47,850 nt of DNA from the NCBI GenBank assembly GCA_044227445.1, contig JBGAWT010000001.1, positions 1-47,850 of the forward strand. The letters are read 5' to 3'. Source of the DNA: Bdellovibrionia bacterium. GTDB lineage: Bacteria; Bdellovibrionota; UBA1018. The position numbers and the translations under genes are program-made. Under the pieces are notes generated by a model. The model was given only the letters and a program-made list of their open reading frames with translations, was not told the origin of the DNA and searched no databases. Below are positions 4,345 through 45,937 of this stretch, in pieces (position 1 is the stretch's first letter; every line of letters starts with the position of its first letter).

Positions 4345-5408
4345 CTAAGTTTCGGTGCGCTTCTGCAACACCGCATCCATCGCTGACGCAGCGGGCGGAG
4401 ACCAGACAAAACCCAGATGCTCGTACGCCAGACGAGTGGCCATGCGACCTCGGGGCGTGCGCTGAAGAAGCCCCTCTTGAATCAAAAAGGGTTCGTACAC
4501 GTCTTCGAGAGTGTCGCGCTCTTCTCCTAGGGCTGAACAAAGATTTTCGATCCCCACGGGCCCCCCATCGTACTTCTCGATGATGGAAGTAAGCAGCTTG
4601 CGATCCATGAGATCCAAACCCCGAGGATCCACCTCAAAAAGCGTCAGAGCTTTTTGCGCGATCTCGCGAGTGAGCTTCGCTTCTTGGCCTGCAAACACTT
4701 GGGCATAATCGCGCACGCGCTTGAGCAACCGATTGGCGATGCGAGGCGTCCCGCGCGAACGGCGCGCAATCTCGTTGGCTCCCGACTCATCAGTCGGAAC
4801 TCCCAAAAACTGCGAGGACCTGCGCACGATCTCTTCGATCTCGGTCACAGGATAAAAATCCAAGCGCAGCTGAACGCCAAAGCGATCGCGCAACGGACTA
4901 GAGAGCAAACCGGTGCGCGTGGTCGCGCCCGCAAAGTAAAACGCGGCAAGTCGATGCGAATGGTGCGAGCCGCAGGACCCTGACCCAAAATCAGATCGAG
5001 CTTGAAGTCCTCCATCGCGCTGTAAAGCACTTCTTCGATGGTCTTGGGCAGTCGGTGAATCTCATCGATAAAAAGGACATCGCCGGGCTGAAGATTGCTC
5101 AGCACTGCGGCTAGATCGCCTTTCTTCTCGACGTTAGGGCCGGTGACCAAATGAATCTGCGTCTTCATTTCCTCTGCGATGATGTGGGCAAGCGTCGTCT
5201 TACCCAATCCTGGTGGGCCCGCCAAAAGCACGTGATCCAGGGCTTCGCCGCGTGCGCGAGCAGCGGCCATGAACAGGCGCAGATTCTCTTTAACTTTATA
5301 TTGGCCGATGTAATCGGACAGATGCGAAGGTCTGAGGCTTTTCTCAGCCTGCACCTCTCCCACGCCCTTGGACTCGCGATCAACGGTACGAACGGATTCG
5401 GTTTCCAT
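4345..5408 (-). pseudogene. ruvB: Holliday junction branch-migration ATPase RuvB, split by one frame shift (fragments 4845..5408 and 4345..4908)
   Basis: The N-fragment has [20 protein letters not shown] and ...[10 protein letters not shown]. The C-fragment resumes with (GATTRTG)[11 protein letters not shown]... On the reverse strand the sequence reads ttt act ttg cg ggc gcg acc, so one nt is missing at the C-run 4928..4931. Confidence 0.9.
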
Positions 5409-36381: not shown

Positions 36382-36410
36382 TTGACAAACTGGGTTTTGA
36401 CCCATACTGA
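36382..36410 (+). promoter_or_regulatory. candidate sigma70-like promoter for paralogue 1
   Basis: TTGACA (36382..36387), then 15 nt, then CATACT. The same TTGACA-N15-CATAxx layout recurs at 38433. This is pattern match only. Confidence 0.3.
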
Positions 36411-36442
36411 AGCGTCGAAAACTCAACGATAGGAGCCGCCTC

Positions 36443-37387
36443 ATGAAGCCGATTCTCTTCGTTCTCGCTTCCCTTCTGATCTCTCCCCTTTCATTCGCAC
36501 AGACAGATCTTGAAAACGCTCAGACGTTTCAAAAGGTCATCCTAATCAATACGGCCCCGGGCGGAATGGATGAGAATCGCCTGCACGCCAAGGGAAAGCC
36601 TGCTGAGGTGATCAAGAAATCAGTGCCTGCTTTGAATAGCTCTCTGCTGGCGGCTCGACTCAAGCTTGCTCAAGACCTAGCTGACCATCGCAAAGGCGAC
36701 GCTTCTATCCCCAACCGACTCAAGGAAGTCGCAGATTACAACGCAGTGATCGATGCTTTGGCGCCGAAGTCCGTGGTCTACGACGATGACAATACATTTG
36801 GCTCTTTTGGCGAAAGCTTACCGATTCTGAGCCCTGACGTCGTGAGCGCGGGACGAATCGAGACCACTCCGTTTGATTTTACGGAAGGCTTTCAGGTCCA
36901 ATGCAAAGAGGATTGGTACAGCGGGATCACGGTCCATCGCCACAGGAAGACTGGGGAAGTCCTCTGGTTTAAGGCAAGTCGCTCGAGCATCGCCGTAGTA
37001 GCTGAGGACTATGACGGCAACCCCATCACGAAAGTGAATTATTATGGTGCGATCACCTCTATCTGGGACCCAGTGACAGATCGCTGGAAGGTCTATGAGG
37101 AGAAGGGTCGCTACTCCAATGCGGCGGTGTACAACCCGACTACTGAAAAAGTCGAATACGTTAAAAGCGAGCAAGACCAAGGAATCGGCGGCGTATTTCA
37201 CCCCATCACTGGACAAGTCGAATGGGAAACGGCCTACGAGACCGGCATAGCAGGTTGGTATGATCCGGGCAAAAAACGTGTCTTTTGGAAGAAAAACTCC
37301 CACGGCGGAGTAGCTTGCATCTGGCGCGACGAAAACGGCCAGTACCACACCTCAACGGGATACCCCGTGAGCTTCCCCCGGCGCTGA
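36443..37387 (+). CDS. secreted ~21-aa-repeat protein, tandem paralogue 1 (uncharacterised family)
   Basis: 314 aa with signal peptide MKPILFVLASLLISPLSFA. It shares an N-terminal helical module (HAKGKPAEVIKKSVPALN...HRKG) and C-terminal repeats (...AAVYNPTTEKVEYVKSEQDQ GIGGVFHPITGQVEWETAYET GIAGWYDPGKKRVFWKKNSHG GVACIWRDENGQYHTS) with the next two genes. Confidence 0.8.
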   Translation: MKPILFVLASLLISPLSFAQTDLENAQTFQKVILINTAPGGMDENRLHAKGKPAEVIKKSVPALNSSLLAARLKLAQDLADHRKGDASIPNRLKEVADYNAVIDALAPKSVVYDDDNTFGSFGESLPILSPDVVSAGRIETTPFDFTEGFQVQCKEDWYSGITVHRHRKTGEVLWFKASRSSIAVVAEDYDGNPITKVNYYGAITSIWDPVTDRWKVYEEKGRYSNAAVYNPTTEKVEYVKSEQDQGIGGVFHPITGQVEWETAYETGIAGWYDPGKKRVFWKKNSHGGVACIWRDENGQYHTSTGYPVSFPRR

Positions 37388-37489
37388 TCTTGACCCAATC
37401 TTGATAAACGCCTGACAGTCCTTGGACAGCAAATCGCCGGGGGTTGGGCTATTTTGCGCCTCGTTGCACAACCGCATCGGAGGCCCAAC

Positions 37490-38428
37490 ATGAAAACGTT
37501 ATTCAAAGTTACCGCTCTTACCTTGGGATGTTCTGCCTTGCTGGCTAGCTTTTCGGCGCTGGCAGATCTGAATCGGGAGCGCGCTCTGAGCTTAAATAAA
37601 CAGCTCTTTGAATCGACCACGCCAGGCAGTCTCAACTCAGCCCGCAGACACGCCAAGGGCGAGAACGCTCGCGTAGTGAAGGATCTTATTCCTGCCCTCA
37701 ACAACGAATTGATTTTGGTTCGCGATACCTTAAGCAGGGAGCTCGTAGCTCATCGCCTCGGGCAAGAGACCGCAATCGATCTGAGGTACCGAATCGACGA
37801 ATACAATAAACTCTTTGATTCGCTGGATTACCATTCGGTCGTGTACGACGACGCAAGTCCCATGGGAGCTTACGGTAGCTCCTTTCGAGTCTTGAATGAG
37901 GGCGTGCGTAGTTTAGGAACTATTGAGCTCACGGGGTTTGATTTCACTTCCGGATTCTACGTCGAGTGCCAAAAACGCTACAACTCCGGTTTGGTTGTCC
38001 ATCGCAACAGCAAAACGGGTGATATCACCTGGCGCCACAGATATTCGAACGCCTTAGCCGTTGTAGGCGAAAATCCCGACGGAAGCCCGATCATCGCCAT
38101 TAAATACGAAACGGGAATAACCTCCGCGTTTAACGCTGCGGCAGGACGCTGGGAATCCAGTGCCGCGCGCTACATGCATTCCAACGCAGCGGCCTACAAC
38201 GAGGCCACGGAAAAAGTAGAATTTCAAGAAAGCGGCTACCATTCGGGCTTGGGCGGAGTCTTCAATCCGGTATCGGCAAAGGTAGAGTGGAGCTCTGCCT
38301 ACCACACCGGTGTCGCCGGTTACTTTGAACCTACCAAAGCCGAAGTCATTTGGACTAAAGCCTACCAGTCAGGGCGCTACCACACTTCTTCAGGCTACTA
38401 CGGCTACTACGGCGGTTCGGATGACTAG
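37490..38428 (+). CDS. secreted ~21-aa-repeat protein, tandem paralogue 2
   Basis: The track ORF is 37454..38428. ATG 37490 follows GGAGG and gives MKTLFKVTALTLGCSALLASFSALA. It is collinear with paralogues 1 and 3 but lacks the GVACIWRDxNGQ segment (AYQSG-RYHTSSG). The tail is Gly/Tyr-rich. Confidence 0.8.
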   Translation: MKTLFKVTALTLGCSALLASFSALADLNRERALSLNKQLFESTTPGSLNSARRHAKGENARVVKDLIPALNNELILVRDTLSRELVAHRLGQETAIDLRYRIDEYNKLFDSLDYHSVVYDDASPMGAYGSSFRVLNEGVRSLGTIELTGFDFTSGFYVECQKRYNSGLVVHRNSKTGDITWRHRYSNALAVVGENPDGSPIIAIKYETGITSAFNAAAGRWESSAARYMHSNAAAYNEATEKVEFQESGYHSGLGGVFNPVSAKVEWSSAYHTGVAGYFEPTKAEVIWTKAYQSGRYHTSSGYYGYYGGSDD

Positions 38429-38432
38429 GGGT

Positions 38433-38461
38433 TTGACAACATCGATCAGTTCACATAACTG
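38433..38461 (+). promoter_or_regulatory. candidate sigma70-like promoter for paralogue 3
   Basis: TTGACA (38433..38438), then 15 nt, then CATAAC, and AAGGAG 8 nt before ATG 38491. This is pattern match only. Confidence 0.3.
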
Positions 38462-38490
38462 GGCGATCAACAATTAAGGAGTTTTCCTGT

Positions 38491-39447
38491 ATGAAGCGCT
38501 CTTTTGCCGTCCTTGTTTGCATCAGCCTCTCAGCGACTTTTTCCGCTTTCGCCGATTCGGGCGAGGAACGAATCAAAGCTCTCAGTGAGCAGGTATTCGA
38601 GTCGACGTCAGGAGGAAACTTCCGCTCGAGCCGCAGGCATGCCACCGGCGAGAAGGCGAAGACCGTTAAGGAAACCCTTCCTACTTTGAACAATGAAGTG
38701 ATTCTTGTTCGTCACAACCTAAGCCGTGAGCTCATGATCCATCGGCTGGGCGGCGAGACCCCTTCAAATCTTTATTCCAGGATCAACGACTTCAACTCGC
38801 TCTTTCGGAAACTGGATTCTAGCAACATTGTGTACGACGAGGACAACACCTTTGGTTCCTTCGGCGGAAGCACTCCTGCTCTGAACGCGGGAGTTAAGAG
38901 CTTGGGCGAAATCGAGCTCACCCGTTTTGATTTCACCACAGGCTTTCAGGCCGAGTGCAAAGATGCTTACAAGGCGGGAGTTATCGTATTTCGCAACACC
39001 AAGACGGGCGAGATCCACTGGAGCCAAAGCTATAAATCTGGGTTGGCTGTCGTAGGCGAAGCCGCGGATGGAAGCGCTATTACCAAAGAGAGTTACCAAA
39101 CGGGCTTAACATCGGACTTCAATCCCACGACGGAGCGATGGGAGTATTTCGAGGGCAACTATTTGCATGCCAATGCGGCCGTCTACAACCCCGCCACACA
39201 GCAAGTCGAGGTACAGGAGAGCGGATATAAGAGCGGCATCGGCGGGGTGTTCAACCCCCTCACCCGTCTCGTCGAATGGAAGTCGAGCTACCGAAATGGC
39301 GTCGCGGGATACTTTGATCCAACTCAAGGAAAAGTTATCTGGGTAGAAAGCTATAAATCAGGCGTCGCTTGCATCTGGCGGGATAGCAATGGCCAGTACC
39401 ACACGTCTTCGAGCTTCTTCGGCGGTATCAGCGGCAAGTACGACTAG
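38491..39447 (+). CDS. secreted ~21-aa-repeat protein, tandem paralogue 3
   Basis: 318 aa with signal peptide MKRSFAVLVCISLSATFSAFA. It carries RRHATGEKAKTVKETLPTLNNEVILVRHNLSRELMIHRLG and the repeats ...AAVYNPATQQVEVQESGYKS GIGGVFNPLTRLVEWKSSYRN GVAGYFDPTQGKVIWVESYKS GVACIWRDSNGQYHTS. Confidence 0.8.
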   Translation: MKRSFAVLVCISLSATFSAFADSGEERIKALSEQVFESTSGGNFRSSRRHATGEKAKTVKETLPTLNNEVILVRHNLSRELMIHRLGGETPSNLYSRINDFNSLFRKLDSSNIVYDEDNTFGSFGGSTPALNAGVKSLGEIELTRFDFTTGFQAECKDAYKAGVIVFRNTKTGEIHWSQSYKSGLAVVGEAADGSAITKESYQTGLTSDFNPTTERWEYFEGNYLHANAAVYNPATQQVEVQESGYKSGIGGVFNPLTRLVEWKSSYRNGVAGYFDPTQGKVIWVESYKSGVACIWRDSNGQYHTSSSFFGGISGKYD

Positions 39448-39449
39448 AA

Positions 39450-39830
39450 CTAAAGCTGCTGCGTAGGCGCAGGCCCCGGAGTATGGGCCGACTCTTTGAA
39501 GGGCTGGTAGCACTTAGGGCAGTACTGAGGATTGTCCGTCGTCCACATGCCCTTGAGGCAACCAGGGCACTTAATGCGCCCGTACTTGCCAAAGGCCATG
39601 AGCAGACTGATCAAAGAGGCCGAAAATAAAATCGCATCCATGATCGCGCCGAACTCAGGGCTCTTGTGCTTGATGTTGAGCACATCGATGAAGTTGAGCG
39701 CTTCGGCCACCCCAAAGACGGCAAATAGAACCGTAAAAACCAGAAACAGCGTGCGCGAGGTCGCCAGCTGTTTCTGGAAGGCTTTTCTTACGGAATCGCT
39801 GATCTGAACCCCTCTATGGGGCGCCGGCAC
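39450..39830 (-). CDS. hypothetical 2-TM membrane protein with C-terminal CxxC...CxxC zinc-ribbon
   Basis: 126 aa with two hydrophobic helices followed by KCPGCLKGMWTTDNPQYCPKCYQPF. It starts 3 nt after the ftsZ stop on the same strand. Confidence 0.6.
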   Translation of the reverse strand: MPAPHRGVQISDSVRKAFQKQLATSRTLFLVFTVLFAVFGVAEALNFIDVLNIKHKSPEFGAIMDAILFSASLISLLMAFGKYGRIKCPGCLKGMWTTDNPQYCPKCYQPFKESAHTPGPAPTQQL

Positions 39831-41151: not shown

Positions 41152-42387
41152 TTAAAAAAGATCTCGGATCCACGAAACCATCGATCCGCGTACCTTGTCG
41201 TAAATATTGCGCTCCCTGATCGGGAACTTGCTCTTTTGCGAGTTGCGCGAGCCGTATCGAATCAGACCCACGCCCGTTGCAAACTTAGGAGAATTGACGA
41301 CGTCTCTCAGGCCACCGATGTCCTGAGGGAAACCGCGTTTAACGGGCATCTCGAAGATCATCTCAGCCAGCTCAGGCATTCCTTCGAGCAACGAGGATCC
41401 GCCGGTTATGACGACTCCGGCTGAGAGCAGCTCTTGGTAGCCCGACTTCATGACTTCGCGTTGAATGAGCGAGAAGATCTCCTCGACCCGAGGCTCTATG
41501 ATTTCGGCCAAAAGCCTGCGCGACACGACACGCGGTTTGCGCCCACCGACTCCAGGCACTTCGACCGTCTCGTCAGGCCTGACCATCGAGGCCATTGCGC
41601 AGCCGTAGCGAATCTTGGTGCGCTCGGCTTCGTTTTGAGGAGTGCGTAGGCCCACTGCGATGTCGTTGGTGATGTGATTTCCGCCGATAGCAAGCACGCC
41701 TGTGTGAACAACGGCGCCTTCCTTGAAAATGGCGATATCGCTTGTGCCACCGCCGATATCGACGAGCACGACGCCCAATTCTTTTTCGTCCTGACAGAGC
41801 ACGGCTTCGCTTGAAGCGATCGGCTCTAGGCAAATCTCAGCGACGTTTAAGCCCGCCTTGTTCACGCACTTGATGATGTTTTGCGCGGAGCTCACTGCGC
41901 CAGTCACGATATGGACCTTCGCTTCAAGTCTCACGCCGCTCATTCCGACCGGATCCTTGATCCCGTCTTGGTCATTGACCATGAACTCCTGCGGAATGAT
42001 GTGGATTGTCTCGCGGTCCAAAGGGATGGCCACAGCTTTCGCCGCGTCGATTACCCTTTGGACATCGGCTTGCGTGATCTCGCGGTCTTTAACCGCCACC
42101 ACGCCCGTCGAATTAAATGATTTGATGTGTCCGCCCGCGATGCCCGTGTAGACGGTGGAAATCTCCACGCCTGCCATGAGCTCCGCTTCTTCGATAGCGC
42201 GCGTGATGCTCTCAACGGTCGTGTCGATGTTTACGACGACGCCTTTTCTGAGTCCGTGCGATGGGGCGGTTCCGATTCCCACGACATCGATTGTCGTCGT
42301 GGGACCGTTGTCAACGATCTCGCCCACGATGCAACAAATCTTGGTCGTTCCGATGTCGAGCCCGACAATAAAGTCCTTTTTGGACAT
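41152..42387 (-). CDS. ftsA: cell division protein FtsA
   Basis: The track ORF 41152..42846 has a 153-codon N-terminal extension that is really ftsQ 3' sequence. ATG 42387 follows GGGAGGG and gives [23 protein letters not shown]..., and it has [10 protein letters not shown]. Confidence 0.93.
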
Positions 42388-42461
42388 TCGAGAATCCCTC
42401 CCATGGGACTCTGTGGGCAAAGCCGGCAAAAAAAGCCTGGCCCAGCAGGCTCTAAGAAAGT

Positions 42462-43196
42462 CTAAGAACCATGAGCGGTTTTGACAACTATTTTTTGCCA
42501 ATATCTGCCCAGATTTGACGCGCCACGGCGCGAACCGAGTATCTCTCGAAGACCCGCGCCACGCCGAGCCCGCCACTCCGGAGAGCCCCAGCTCAACCCA
42601 AACGCGATTTGGAGGGGCTTGGAACCTAAAGGATAGGCCAAAGCCCTGACGCCGCGTTCGGCATCCCCATCTCAACTCCAGAAGTTTAAAGCGCGCGAGC
42701 GCCGCTGTTTTCTCCCAACTTTGGATGAGTTCCACAAATACGGGCAGTCTGCTGTCGCCCGAACCCAACGCCGTGATGAGAGTCAGATCCCAACCCGTGT
42801 GTGCATTCACCGGAGCGAATGCTTCACCCGATCGATCCACGTACAAAGTTTTCCCACTTAGAGCTTTGAAGCACGCCTCACCTGAAACTCAGGCCGAATC
42901 ACGACGGTGCCGGGAAGTTTCTTTTGCAGCCGAACAGATGCGATCCAAGGATGGCGCTCAATTCGCTTTTGAAGCGCCGAGAAATCCAGATCGAATAAGG
43001 AGATCTTGCCAATGGGGACCGAAGCCTGCGCGATGATCTCTGCCGCCGAAAGCGGCGAGTGCGTCGATAGTCCTTCGACCTCGGCAAGCCGTACTAAGAA
43101 AAGATCCGATCGAAGCGCTGAAACAATTCCCGCGCCCAATCCCGCCAGAACGGCAACCGAGAAGAAAACTCGTGTCGCTTTGCTGCGATTGCCCAT
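42462..43196 (-). pseudogene. ftsQ: cell division protein FtsQ, interrupted by at least two and probably three 1-nt deletions
   Basis: Frame 1 (42858..43196) holds the TM helix plus POTRA (LFLVRLAEVEGL...HPWIASVRLQKKLPGTVVIRPEFQ). The next frame reads EACFKALSGKTLYVDRSGEAFAP...GFGLSFRFQAPPNRVWVELG. The next reads GVARVFERYSV (compare E. coli RLARFVELYPV). The last reads ASNLGRYWQKIVVKTAHGS-stop (42462..42464). The shifts map to about 42861..42888, near the C4 run 42586..42589, and about 42511..42535. The 3' end is uncertain. Confidence 0.75.
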
Positions 43197-43252
43197 CTTC
43201 TTTTAAGACTAAAGCATGGCGTGAGCTTAGGCCACCTGGTAGTTTTATTGTT

Positions 43253-44605
43253 ATGCAACCATCTTGGAATCGGCTCCTCGCTCTTGCTGCTTTCGCTCGT
43301 CAGCTGCAATCGCCCTCCGGCATCCGTGATCGAGAAATCCTCTCGACGCCCTTAGTCGGTAACCTCAATGTGCAGCGCTTTAAACTCAAGAACGGGCTCA
43401 AGATCCTCGTCGTTGAGGACCATTCGGCACCGACCTTCGCGTATCAAACCTGGTTTCACGTGGGCTCCAAAGACGAAGAAGTGGGCAAGACCGGATTGGC
43501 TCACCTCTTTGAGCACATGATGTTCAAGGGAACCAAGAACCACAAAGACGGCGAGTATGACCGCATTCTCGAAGGCGCCGGCGCAGAAGGAGAAAACGCC
43601 TTCACGAGCCGCGATTACACGGCCTATGTGCAGGAGCTTCCGAAGGGAAACCTAGAACTCATCGCACAAATGGAATCTGACCGCATGGTCAACCTCATCG
43701 TGGATGAGAAGGCATTTCGAACGGAGCTTGAAGTCGTTCAAAACGAACGCCGATTTAGAAACGAAAACAGCGCCGACGGAATGATGTACCAGGAGATCTT
43801 CGGGCTGGCTTTTGACAAGCACCCCTATCACTGGCCTGTCATCGGCTACCAAAAAGACCTCGACAGCATGCACGCCCCGGACGGCTATAAGTTTTATCGC
43901 GAGCACTACAGCCCCAACCGCGCGACCATCATCGTCGTCGGCGATGTCACGGCAGCTGAAGTTTTGAAGGTGGTGGATCGCTATTACGCAGCCCTCCCTC
44001 CGACGGCACCCGAGATCTCAGCACCACGCACTCCAGAGCCTGAGCAAACGGCGCCCAAACTCCGACGCATGCCCTTTAGCATTCAGGTGGAGAAACTCAT
44101 GGTGGGCTACCGCGTTCCGGAAATCTTCAATGAGGAGCGGGCCGCACTCGACGTGCTCCAGGTCATTATGGCTGGCGGTAAGAGCAGTCGCTTGTATCGA
44201 GCTGCCGTCAAATCGGGCGTCGCCTCGGAGATCGAGGCCTTTGACCTCGAGGACGAAGACCCTTCGCTGTTCTTGGTCGCTGGAAATCTCCAAAAAGGGA
44301 AGAAAGCCACCCAGCTCGAAACCATCATGCTCAAGGAATTTGAGCGCGTCGGTAAGGAAGGCGTTACAGCCGATGAACTCGAGCGAGCGCGCAACCGTAT
44401 CGACTTCCAGTATAATGAACGGCTCAGCACCCATATGGAGCGCGCTTCGTTCCTAGGCCACTTTGAGACCTCGGCTGGCGGCTTCGAGGTTGGCGTCAGA
44501 CGCCACGACCAAGCCCAAAAAGTTGAGTCCAAGCAGATCCAGCAGCTCGTGACCAAATACTTCAAGCCGCATCAGCGCGTCACGATGATCGGAGAAAAGA
44601 AATGA
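43253..44605 (+). CDS. M16-family (pitrilysin-like) zinc peptidase, catalytic subunit
   Basis: It has the HxxEH motif (GLAHLFEHMMFKGT) and downstream GENAFTSRDYT and ELEVVQNERR. The track start is 43172. ATG 43253 is used here, but the N-terminus is uncertain (see the rejected note on the alternate-frame lipobox). It overlaps the next gene by 4 nt. Confidence 0.85.
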   Translation: MQPSWNRLLALAAFARQLQSPSGIRDREILSTPLVGNLNVQRFKLKNGLKILVVEDHSAPTFAYQTWFHVGSKDEEVGKTGLAHLFEHMMFKGTKNHKDGEYDRILEGAGAEGENAFTSRDYTAYVQELPKGNLELIAQMESDRMVNLIVDEKAFRTELEVVQNERRFRNENSADGMMYQEIFGLAFDKHPYHWPVIGYQKDLDSMHAPDGYKFYREHYSPNRATIIVVGDVTAAEVLKVVDRYYAALPPTAPEISAPRTPEPEQTAPKLRRMPFSIQVEKLMVGYRVPEIFNEERAALDVLQVIMAGGKSSRLYRAAVKSGVASEIEAFDLEDEDPSLFLVAGNLQKGKKATQLETIMLKEFERVGKEGVTADELERARNRIDFQYNERLSTHMERASFLGHFETSAGGFEVGVRRHDQAQKVESKQIQQLVTKYFKPHQRVTMIGEKK

Positions 44606-45937
44606 AACACCTCATCGTTCTTTTGTTAGCCGCACTGTACTCCTCGCAAGCCCTAGCTATCGAACTGAGCTTCGAGGAAGAATCGACGCTCCCACTCGTT
44701 CAACTGGCCCTTGTCTACAAGAACGGATCCATCACGGATCCGAATGAGAAGCTGGGCTTAACCAACATCACGGGTGAGCTGCTCATGCGCGGAACGAAAA
44801 CGCGCACACGCGAGAAGTTTGACGAAGAGATTGATCGTTTAGGCGCGAAAATCGACGTCGAAACACGGGTTGAGGCTCAAATCGTTCGTGTGGCGGTGCT
44901 CTCACGCAAGCTGCCTGAGTTTTTAGAGATCATGACCGATGTGCTGACTGGGCCCGGATTTTCGGCCGATGAGCTCAAGAAACTCAAAAGCGAAATCACG
45001 GCCGGAATCCTGGAAGAAACGAGCCGCGACCCTATGCTGGCGGCAAGGCGCTTTTCGGAGTTCTTCTTTTCGGGACACCCGTACGGTCGTCCGATCTGGG
45101 AAAGATTCCTACGGTTGAGAAAATCAGCGCTGCGGATGTCGCGGGCCATTATAAAAATCACTTCGGAAAGACCGTCTGCTGATCGTCGGAACCGGCGACG
45201 CTAAGCGAGCTGCGCTTGAAAAATGGAAAACGGATTTAGAGGCCCGTCTTTCGGATTCGGCCCAGCCTCAGTTCAAGATCGAAGCTCCGCAAGAAGCCAG
45301 CACTCGTCGCCTTCAGATCGTCGATAAGCCCGATCGCACTCAAACCCAGATCGATATCGCTCAGATCGGAATCAGGCCGACGGATGAGGATTTTTTTCCG
45401 CTATATGTCGCCAATCACGCCTTTGGAGGACGCTCGTTTCAGGCAAGGCTGATGACCGAGATCCGCGTTAAGCGCGGATGGAGCTATGGCGCTTACAGCG
45501 ACTTTAAGTACGGGCTCAAACCACGCAGCTGGCAGGTGCACCTGTTTCCCGCTTCTAAGGACACCGCAGCCGCATTGAAAACGACGCTGCAGATGATCAC
45601 GGATTGGCACGACAAGGGCCTCACTCAGGAGGAGTTCGCTTTTTCGCAAAAGAGCCTTTTGAACTCGGCGGGCTTTATTTACAGCACGCCTCGCAAGCGC
45701 CTGGAAAACAAGATCTTGGAGAAAACCCTCGACCTTCCGGATGGGTTTTTTCAATCGTACGCCAAGAGGCTTCCCGGTGTGACGCTTGCGGCGACGCAGG
45801 CTGCCGTAAAGAAGTTCTCGCGACCGGATCGCCTATCCATTGGGGTGCTAGCCACAGCCCAGCCGATGAAAGCTGCCTTGGCTGAAGCAGCCGGGGTTGC
45901 GGCTGATCAGGTTAAGGTTCTTCCCTACAATCAGTAA
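44602..45937 (+). pseudogene. M16-family peptidase, non-catalytic partner (no HxxEH), interrupted by two 1-nt deletions
   Basis: The first fragment, 44602..45204, has signal peptide MKHLIVLLLAALYSSQALA and GLTNITGELLMRGT in place of HxxEH. After ...GHPYGRPI the conserved reading continues in the next frame (GKIPTVEKISAADVAGHYKNHFGK) for 66 nt. It then continues in the third frame (RLLIVGTGDAKRAALEKW ... FGGRSFQARLMTEIRVKRGWSYGAYS...) to 45937. The shifts are at about 45097..45100 and 45168..45172. Confidence 0.8.

Follow-up and report, generated by a model that had tools for sequence, protein, structure and literature searches.

In a 47,850-nucleotide stretch of DNA from a Bdellovibrionia bacterium (GenBank assembly GCA_044227445.1, contig JBGAWT010000001.1, positions 1 to 47,850; hereafter, the window), three consecutive genes of the forward strand encode paralogous proteins of 312–318 residues. 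The locus is a lineage-specific tandem triplication of one gene, and the three copies are intact, belong to one clade and are under purifying selection. Each protein combines a helical N-terminal module of about 120 residues (N-module) with a C-terminal domain that is entirely beta, spans some 170 residues and has a period of 21 residues. This repeat, together with the cap that terminates it, defines a small superfamily for which Pfam, NCBIfam and the PDB have no entry. The best overall explanation for the locus, one that we hold at slightly better than even confidence, is that such a triplication gave rise to non-catalytic, Sec-exported, two-module proteins.

Three tandem genes and their products

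The three proteins are 40–54% identical in pairwise comparisons, and the DNA identity between the copies is just 63–81%, in the best-conserved patches. Common to the trio and invariant are the motifs R.HA.G..A...K...P.LN, VYD-D..G..G.S and FDFT.GF...C, as well as the ending GVACIWRD.NGQYHTS, from which paralogue 2 has lost exactly 10 residues (the VACIWRDxNG strand, with the junction near 38375–38380). The initial annotation of the window had recorded a same-strand tandem triplication of an exported, uncharacterized protein, had quoted motifs that are indeed present in the trio and had pointed out a clean deletion in the second copy; on all these counts our results agree with it. By tblastn, no further copy was found within the window. 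Gene 2 has an alternative start, a TTG at 37454, in an open frame that would yield 324 residues. We favor the ATG at 37490 over it, because GGAGG precedes this codon and because the resulting N terminus (MKTLF) aligns with those of the two other copies (MKRSF and MKPIL).

Between the copies, synonymous sites are saturated (proportion of synonymous differences, pS, 0.73–0.78), while the nonsynonymous divergence (dN) among the three amounts to 0.39–0.62. The comparison of the copies that the initial annotation had envisaged gave dN/dS ratios of 0.21–0.24 where computable, values that, owing to the saturation of pS, are to be read only as an upper-bound type of statement. A saturated dS and a low dN/dS together imply that the duplicates are old and selectively maintained.

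These figures also bear on the possibility that the open reading frames (ORFs) are decaying duplicates, or are spurious, and serve no function. Possible frameshifts elsewhere on the contig (a split ruvB gene and a truncated second M16 peptidase, described below), the deletion in copy 2 and the repeat signal of copy 1, the weakest of the three, are all features that decay could produce. However, the frames have remained open over 312–318 codons despite saturated synonymous divergence, with a dN/dS of at most 0.24; a Shine–Dalgarno sequence stands before each gene; relatives are conserved in several lineages; and the structural models are confident. Functionless ORFs thus appear extremely unlikely.

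Judged by eye, all three proteins start with a type I Sec signal, MKPILFVLASLLISPLSFA (followed by Q), MKTLFKVTALTLGCSALLASFSALA (followed by D) and MKRSFAVLVCISLSATFSAFA (followed by D). Signal-like N termini occur in 16 of the 16 N-terminally complete full-length members of the family (14 by an automatic rule and two by eye). No lipobox of the form [LVI][ASTVI][GAS]C was found at the end of the signal in the window trio; lipobox-like motifs are present in three full-length relatives, namely P0006 (LVGC), P0009 (SLGC) and P0018 (GTGC). Cys14 of paralogue 2 was considered as a lipobox cysteine and discarded: it sits in the hydrophobic h-region and failed a PROSITE-type rule through K6 and its position.

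The N-module, which in paralogue 1 reaches up to about residue 143, is marked across the family by R.H, HR.G, FN, VYDxDN..G.FG.S and FDFT.GF..EC (alignments A2 and A7). Full-length matches to the hidden Markov model (HMM) of the family span profile positions 1–326, and the trio belongs to this full-length family, of about 17 members, to which the N-module is restricted. A profile search of PDB sequences with the N-module returned nothing significant, and the module shows no catalytic signature. A resemblance of its RRHA motif to the TRRE of relatives lacking a signal peptide was ruled out as homology, the hhalign probability being 0.4%.

Table 1. Positions of the genes, upstream elements and protein features of the trio (nucleotide numbers refer to the window; the slash marks the cleavage site)
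Feature	Gene or paralogue	Position	Strand	Remark
ORF	paralogue 1	36443-37387	+	314 aa
ORF	paralogue 2	37490-38428	+	312 aa from ATG
ORF	paralogue 3	38491-39447	+	318 aa
Promoter-like TTGACA-N15-CATA	gene 1	36382-36406	+	61 nt before ATG
Promoter-like TTGACA-N15-CATA	gene 3	38433-38457	+	58 nt before ATG
Shine–Dalgarno AGGAG	gene 1	36431-36435	+	read from sequence
Shine–Dalgarno GGAGG	gene 2	37479-37483	+	read from sequence
Shine–Dalgarno AAGGAG	gene 3	38476-38481	+	read from sequence
Signal peptide (by eye)	paralogue 1	residues 1-19		...LSFA/QT
Signal peptide (by eye)	paralogue 2	residues 1-25		...SALA/DL
Signal peptide (by eye)	paralogue 3	residues 1-21		...SAFA/DS
Beta domain	paralogue 1	residue 144 (nt 36872) to end		starts at FDFT
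Beta domain	paralogue 2	from residue 150 (nt 37937)		
Beta domain	paralogue 3	residues 146-308 (nt 38926-39414)		
Cysteines	paralogue 1	Cys154 (36902-36904), Cys292 (37316-37318)		
Cysteine	paralogue 2	Cys160 (37967-37969)		sole one in mature protein
Cysteines	paralogue 3	Cys156 (38956-38958), Cys294 (39370-39372)		

The repeat domain and its predicted structure

From the FDFT motif onward, each of the three proteins can be divided into 21-residue units with zero indels. In an autocorrelation based on BLOSUM scores, lag 21 ranked first in paralogues 2 and 3, above 200 of 200 shuffles; in paralogue 1, the top lags were 42, 22 and 21, and the null was not exceeded. The HMM of the canonical repeat matched just the last two or three units of each protein, the earlier ones being degenerate. 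The trio thus shows two to three units of the superfamily consensus within a 21-residue register kept throughout, and the seven or so G(I/V).G units of the initial annotation stand as structural units in that register, but not as copies of the motif, which only two or three units per protein retain. The consensus of 377 units from the superfamily reads s-G-V/I-A-G-V-Y/F/W-N-P-x-T-g-x-V/I-E-W-K/R-x-x-Y/W-x, with conservation above 90% at G5, N8, P9 and W16. The domain terminates in a conserved cap, GVACIWRDxxGxYHTS.

The repeat had been deemed unassignable to any known family, and our searches point the same way. The trio gave zero matches to Pfam and NCBIfam at E ≤ 10, while PADLOC and PHROGs yielded no credible match at E ≤ 1. 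When 94 relatives were compared with Pfam and NCBIfam, no family covered the repeat, and the matches obtained (PF16404 in three proteins, PQQ_2 in two) were all marginal. Established repeat families, i.e., MORN (PF02493), YD/RHS (PF05593), Kelch, WG_beta_rep and CW_binding_1, did not match the trio at E ≤ 10 and were not among the 25 best families for the 94 relatives. A single-sequence search and three profile searches (full family, signal-less subfamily and N-module) of PDB sequences gave nothing significant; the best chance match of the family profile was to a fusion of polyhedrin with CLN025 (chignolin), aligned on YDPETGTW. In the literature, we found no prior description of the repeat, the paper on beta-flower proteins (PMC10584680) being the sole relevant comparison. 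The domain resembles short beta-hairpin repeat modules, yet it belongs to no described family; it represents an undescribed family of repeat domains and, possibly, a new fold.

AlphaFold2 modeled full-length paralogue 3, from an alignment of nine sequences, with a predicted local distance difference test score (pLDDT) of 88.9 and a predicted template modeling score (pTM) of 0.81. The model has helices at residues 5–37 (signal peptide included; 22–37 in the mature protein), 53–85 and 94–109, then a few short strands, and finally, from residue 153 to residue 308, a series of 15 beta segments. The same 15 segments were obtained when the beta domain was modeled alone (27 sequences; pLDDT 91.7, pTM 0.86), and it is therefore predicted to be an autonomous domain. 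The segments are 6–9 residues long, and the breaks between them alternate between a single residue, at s-G, and a turn of 4–6 residues, at NPxTG. Each unit may accordingly be a tightly turned hairpin or else a single long strand with a kink, and the array may be an open sheet, a folded sandwich or a closed barrel.

Foldseek searches with the full model (against PDB and BFVD) and with the beta domain alone (against PDB) retrieved no structure at E ≤ 1e-3, and TM scores were at most 0.26. The weak top matches were to antiparallel meander or barrel proteins (GFP-like proteins, FABP/lipocalin, Hcp1, PinO and leukocidin); they included neither propellers nor parallel solenoids. These outcomes, like the predicted arrangement of helices and 15 beta segments, speak against the propeller or beta-solenoid at which the initial annotation had guessed. 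If the repeats were degenerate blades of the PQQ/BamB type, the proteins could be propeller scaffolds like BamB, and there are some hints to that effect: the relative P0009 matches PF13360 at E 5e-5, two of the 94 scanned relatives do so with values up to 1e-5, and the hairpin D/N-x-x-T-G-x-v-x-W recalls a propeller blade motif. However, the P0009 match reaches 23.5 bits against a PQQ_2 gathering threshold of 27.6, and the trio has no match at E ≤ 10. Moreover, the period is 21 residues, not 40–50, the predicted secondary structure appears to lack four-stranded blades separated by loops, and Foldseek readily recognizes propellers. We consider a propeller very unlikely.

If NPxTG closes a chignolin-like hairpin, then one face of the repeat would be lined by W16, V14, Y20, Y7 and V3, the tryptophan packing over G5 and G2, and the opposite face would carry E15 and K/R17; the aromatic face would be buried and the charged one exposed. 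Such a distribution would be incompatible with a lipid-facing outer-membrane barrel. It was nonetheless worth considering that the C-terminal domain could be a porin- or autotransporter-like beta-barrel, with the N-module as a periplasmic part or a passenger, as a signal peptide followed by some 15–16 antiparallel C-terminal beta segments would fit that architecture. Yet the segments span only 6–9 residues, and the face opposite the aromatic one carries the conserved Glu15 and Lys/Arg17, so that it is not lipid-facing. The C termini (...PRR, ...GGSDD and ...GKYD) contain no aromatic beta-signal, several relatives are lipoprotein-like, many (rotifer proteins included) have no signal at all, and no outer-membrane-protein family was matched. 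An outer-membrane barrel therefore seems hardly tenable.

Another reading of the same models would make the beta domain a distant, enlarged relative of the beta-flower/Tubby-like clan (CL0395, with PF21784–PF21786 and Tubby_C), whose hairpin-repeat barrels surround a hydrophobic helix and bind lipids or move them; the proteins would then be periplasmic agents of lipid binding or transfer. Beta-flower families have repeats of about 19–20 residues per hairpin and an enclosed helix; some bear lipoprotein signals, and they gave no Foldseek or HHpred match to the PDB (Durairaj et al. 2023, PMC10584680). The likeness to the present family is evident in the tandem antiparallel beta repeats of about 20 residues (21 is near 19–20), in the lipobox-like or lipoprotein signals of some members, in the helices that accompany the beta part, in the largely bacterial, dark nature of the proteins and in the empty Foldseek search of the PDB. 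Nevertheless, neither PF21784–PF21786 nor Tubby_C matched the trio at E ≤ 10 or any of the 94 relatives at E ≤ 1e-3, and no Tubby or scramblase structure appeared among the Foldseek matches. The model of the trio member has 15 segments of 6–9 residues, longer than the 8–12 short strands of a beta-flower. Its helices belong to an N-terminal module that other superfamily members lack and that is dispensable for a confident prediction (see the beta-only pTM above). In a beta-flower, a closed barrel encloses a hydrophobic (C-terminal) helix; the array modeled here may be closed as well, or it may be an open sheet. Furthermore, the turn is NPxTG rather than [DNEQ]xxG, and the repeat domain ends in a conserved cap that in many cases precedes an acidic tail. 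A beta-flower relationship is, on balance, distinctly unlikely.

The mature forms of copies 1 and 3 contain exactly two cysteines each, and copy 2 retains a single one because its deletion removed the second. In paralogue 3, C156 replaces the repeat tryptophan in the first strand and C294 replaces a repeat glycine in the penultimate strand. Among 17 family members, both cysteines are present in 14 and neither in two, paralogue 2 being the only protein with one. In exported proteins, such co-occurrence predicts a disulfide and, hence, proximity of the first and last repeats. From these sequence patterns we infer that, in copies 1 and 3, the pair would be joined in the periplasm by a disulfide linking the first strand with the penultimate one.

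Relatives and possible role

Outside the window, only eight relatives turned up when 5.8 billion clustered proteins were searched with a word index. With HMMER and the family profile, 136 proteins were recovered at E ≤ 1e-3 among 1.84 billion representative sequences; about 17 of these are full-length, i.e., comprise both the N-module and the repeats, while the other ~120 share just the repeat block and the C-terminal cap. Full-length members come from metagenome-assembled genomes (MAGs) labeled Pseudobdellovibrionaceae, 'Proteobacteria' (from a pond) and 'Deltaproteobacteria', the Pseudobdellovibrionaceae MAG providing a close relative, P0006, that is 44% identical to paralogue 3. A scan of the genome collection returned two contigs only, both already known, and a scan of metagenomes returned none.

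The 'Deltaproteobacteria' MAG has a trio of its own, as P0018, P0009 and P0012 lie within 5.3 kb at locus L001. In a neighbor-joining tree, the window trio formed one clade (bootstrap 0.995) and the 'Deltaproteobacteria' trio another, meaning that tandem expansion took place independently at least twice.

The loci of the relatives (L001, L002, L003, L006, L007 and L008) have no neighboring genes in common. At one of them (L006:745-3648, from ENA ERZ2854929 NODE_8663), three tandem same-strand genes of 317, 318 and 323 aa are found upstream of P0004. Their products are mutual paralogues with signal-like starts (MLQKLKIMVFFALILTSQISLA) and no Pfam match on record. They were ruled out as additional paralogues of the window family, with which they share 18–21% identity and no repeat, and they constitute a second unannotated, tandemly triplicated exported family, adjoining a member of the first.

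The superfamily reaches well beyond exported proteins, given that only 17 of its 83 longer members look exported. A signal-less subfamily (alignment A5) has a repeat block and cap homologous to those of the window family (alignment A2): hhalign gave a probability of 99.9% (E 8e-35), and the 162 aligned columns took in the cap GVACIWRD...TS. Members of this subfamily (P0175, P0181–P0184) were found in bdelloid rotifers, namely Adineta vaga, A. steineri and Rotaria spp., and among EukProt entries. In the rotifers they are encoded on chromosome-scale scaffolds of 15–18 Mb, and this occurrence may reflect a horizontal transfer of the domain between kingdoms.

Two further features of the superfamily emerged from the alignments. 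In 34 of the 83 longer members, the cap is immediately followed by an aromatic-plus-acidic extreme C terminus (...SSGSYYGDEDDD, ...SFSKDWDEK, ...CWDWDDK; for example in P0011, P0030, P0034, P0026 and P0043), of which the window trio keeps at most a trace. This tail could act as a signal for sorting, partner binding or metal binding. Moreover, P0024, P0036, P0054, P0067, P0077, P0097, P0106, P0109 and P0124 are proteins of 700–890 aa, with the repeat block at the C terminus and an N-terminal motif of the form ...W(R/H)(L/W)(R/K)FW...E...L(D/E)R(L/V)E... The scanned members of this group are absent from the Pfam family summary and represent another undescribed architecture.

In the multidomain members that we examined, the repeat block occupies the C-terminal end and is preceded by unrelated N-terminal parts; among the scanned proteins, single members carry PKD/Ig-like arrays, ankyrin repeats or a Ycf48-like propeller there. 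This arrangement would suit a repeat domain that serves as a non-covalent anchor to a cell-wall or surface polymer, much as choline-binding, GW or MORN repeats do, leaving the N-module as the functional part. Known anchoring repeats are short, rich in aromatic residues and about 20 residues long, like the present one, and the N-module, with its invariant VYDxDN..G.FG.S and FDFT.GF, is the most family-specific part of the proteins. On the other hand, there was no match to CW_binding_1, MORN, GW or SH3b; anchors of this kind are rare in Gram-negative periplasmic proteins; and the existence of signal-less and eukaryotic members argues against a general cell-wall ligand. The N-module, for its part, displays no catalytic signature, and its profile search of the PDB was empty. 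We regard an anchoring role as rather unlikely.

What we tentatively propose instead as the likeliest function, while granting it less than even chances, is that the window proteins are periplasmic or surface modules that bind, or act as a scaffold for, some component of the envelope or of a target cell. A non-catalytic role is suggested because all conserved residues look structural and no conserved polar cluster is present. On this proposal, the proteins would leave the cytoplasm through Sec and lose their signal to signal peptidase I, after which the beta domain would fold into a rigid antiparallel repeat body. A disulfide would staple this body in copies 1 and 3, copy 2 having lost both the strand and the cysteine, and the paralogues would diversify their exposed turns and face.

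Several observations weigh against this interpretation. The signal peptides of the trio were called by inspection only (a K/R n-region, a hydrophobic core and small residues at –3/–1). The same lack of a conserved polar cluster that fits a non-catalytic role also means that no binding site is indicated. As the domain also occurs in bacterial and eukaryotic proteins without signals, an envelope-specific role is not a property of the domain itself, and since the neighborhoods of the relatives are not shared, context lends no support to any particular ligand. The structural side has limits too. The AlphaFold2 readout consisted of scores and secondary structure, which leaves strand pairing, closure and a short Cys–Cys distance putative; the alignments had little depth (9 and 27 sequences), and AlphaFold2 can be over-confident on idealized repeats. 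In a plain meander, the cysteine pair would lie two strands apart, too distant for a disulfide. Finally, Foldseek performs weakly on repetitive all-beta models, so that the lack of an analogue is no proof of a new fold.

The affiliation with Bdellovibrionota keeps a role in prey, host or surface interaction plausible. Independent tandem expansion in two lineages, one of them Bdellovibrionota-like, is the pattern expected for a variable external target, which makes the proteins reasonable candidates for interaction with the envelope or with prey. A broader scenario, doubtful when taken as a whole, would see here a new beta-repeat fold, built on chignolin-like turns and on the packing of tryptophan over glycine, for which neither a solved nor a curated relative exists. 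Bacteria would share the fold with eukaryotes such as bdelloid rotifers, probably through horizontal transfer. In Bdellovibrionota-like bacteria, it would have been recruited time and again, joined to a helical module of their own, sent out of the cytoplasm and multiplied in tandem, giving rise to diversifying binders that target the envelope or prey.

Irrespective of the actual function, a compact, highly regular and very confidently predicted repeat without database coverage is a testable piece of protein dark matter. It amounts to a natural tandem array of a turn (chignolin) that designers reached independently, which makes it attractive for structural biology and for the engineering of repeat proteins. 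As no long-standing question is touched, the value of the finding lies in a new domain family, not in a new mechanism.

Genomic setting and comparison with known repeat systems

Shine–Dalgarno-like sequences are found 7–10 nt before the ATG in all three genes. The initial annotation had also remarked on promoter-like elements upstream of genes 1 and 3. These are the only two matches to TTGACA-N15-CATA on both strands of the window, against 0.05 expected, for a pattern that was drawn up after its two sites had been seen. A standard sigma-70 scan with a spacer of 16–18 nt detected no promoter in the gene region, because the spacer of these elements is 15 nt. Genes 1 and 3 probably have promoters of their own, and gene 2 is probably transcribed by read-through from gene 1; no terminator was detected between the genes of the trio in the scan. 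Rfam and tRNA scans revealed no RNA genes in the region. Upstream of their coding sequences, genes 1 and 2 have a word in common, TTGACCCA(T/A), at 36398-36411 and 37389-37402 on the forward strand, in the variants TTTTGACCCATACT and TCTTGACCCAATCT. It may be a second regulatory word, distinct from TTGACA-N15-CATA.

The window itself is an ordinary piece of core chromosome, with a flat GC content and nothing suggestive of a mobile element. It contains lpxC, ruvA/ruvB, a MurA/AroA-type transferase gene, prmC, prfA, rho, mltG, dnaX and recR, followed by genes for a subtilase, an SDR protein and a DUF486 membrane protein, and then by the trio. Past the trio, in convergent orientation, are genes for a small zinc-ribbon membrane protein, ftsZ, ftsA and murB. 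The FtsZ of the window is 69–76% identical to FtsZ from MAGs of Oligoflexia, Bdellovibrionales and Bdellovibrionota.

A few anomalies were noticed along the way. The zinc-ribbon protein corresponds to a 126-aa ORF (39450-39830, reverse strand) directly downstream of ftsZ and on the same strand as that gene; it ends, convergently, two bases past the stop codon of paralogue 3, encodes two hydrophobic segments and a CPxC...CPxC zinc-ribbon tail, and has no Pfam match. The ruvB gene (4345-5408, reverse strand) is divided into two overlapping 187-aa ORFs, one for the P-loop domain (4845-5408) and the other for the AAA-lid and the C-terminal winged helix (4345-4908), as the result of a frameshift that is either real or an assembly error. 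At 43172-45204 (forward strand), a 200-aa ORF with only the N-terminal M16 domain comes after the gene of a 477-aa M16 peptidase. The gene of this second subunit looks truncated, possibly through another frameshift. As for ftsA (41152-42846, reverse strand), the listed ORF of 564 aa starts from a TTG about 150 residues ahead of the FtsA domains, and the true start is probably downstream.

Apart from the beta-flowers, several known systems invite comparison with the repeat. MORN (PF02493) and MORN_2 repeats are likewise short beta-hairpin units, rich in glycine and aromatic residues, that form elongated antiparallel sheets and occur in bacteria and eukaryotes, in cytosolic as well as other contexts. 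Their period, however, is 23 and their pattern YxGxWxxGxxxGxG, as against 21 and sGVAGVYNPxTGxVEWKxxYx in the trio family. The choline-binding and clostridial repeats of CW_binding_1 (PF01473) resemble ours in being aromatic hairpins of some 20 residues that usually stand at the C-terminal end of exported proteins and have a non-catalytic binding role. They differ in being typical of Gram-positive bacteria, with a consensus GW..G.WYY, and show no sequence match to the trio family. With PQQ_2/BamB (PF13360), the common ground is the local hairpin motif D/N..TG..W and the sub-threshold matches of three relatives (P0009 and two of the 94 scanned), while the period of 40–50 and the blades set that family apart.

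At the level of the turn, the Y-N/D-P-x-T-G-x-V/W of the repeat is almost identical in sequence to chignolin/CLN025 (YYDPETGTWY) and the C-terminal hairpin of GB1. The turn of chignolin is very stable and features a pair of aromatic residues across the strands. Chignolin is, however, a designed peptide of 10 residues, and what it has in common with the repeat is a local motif rather than homology.

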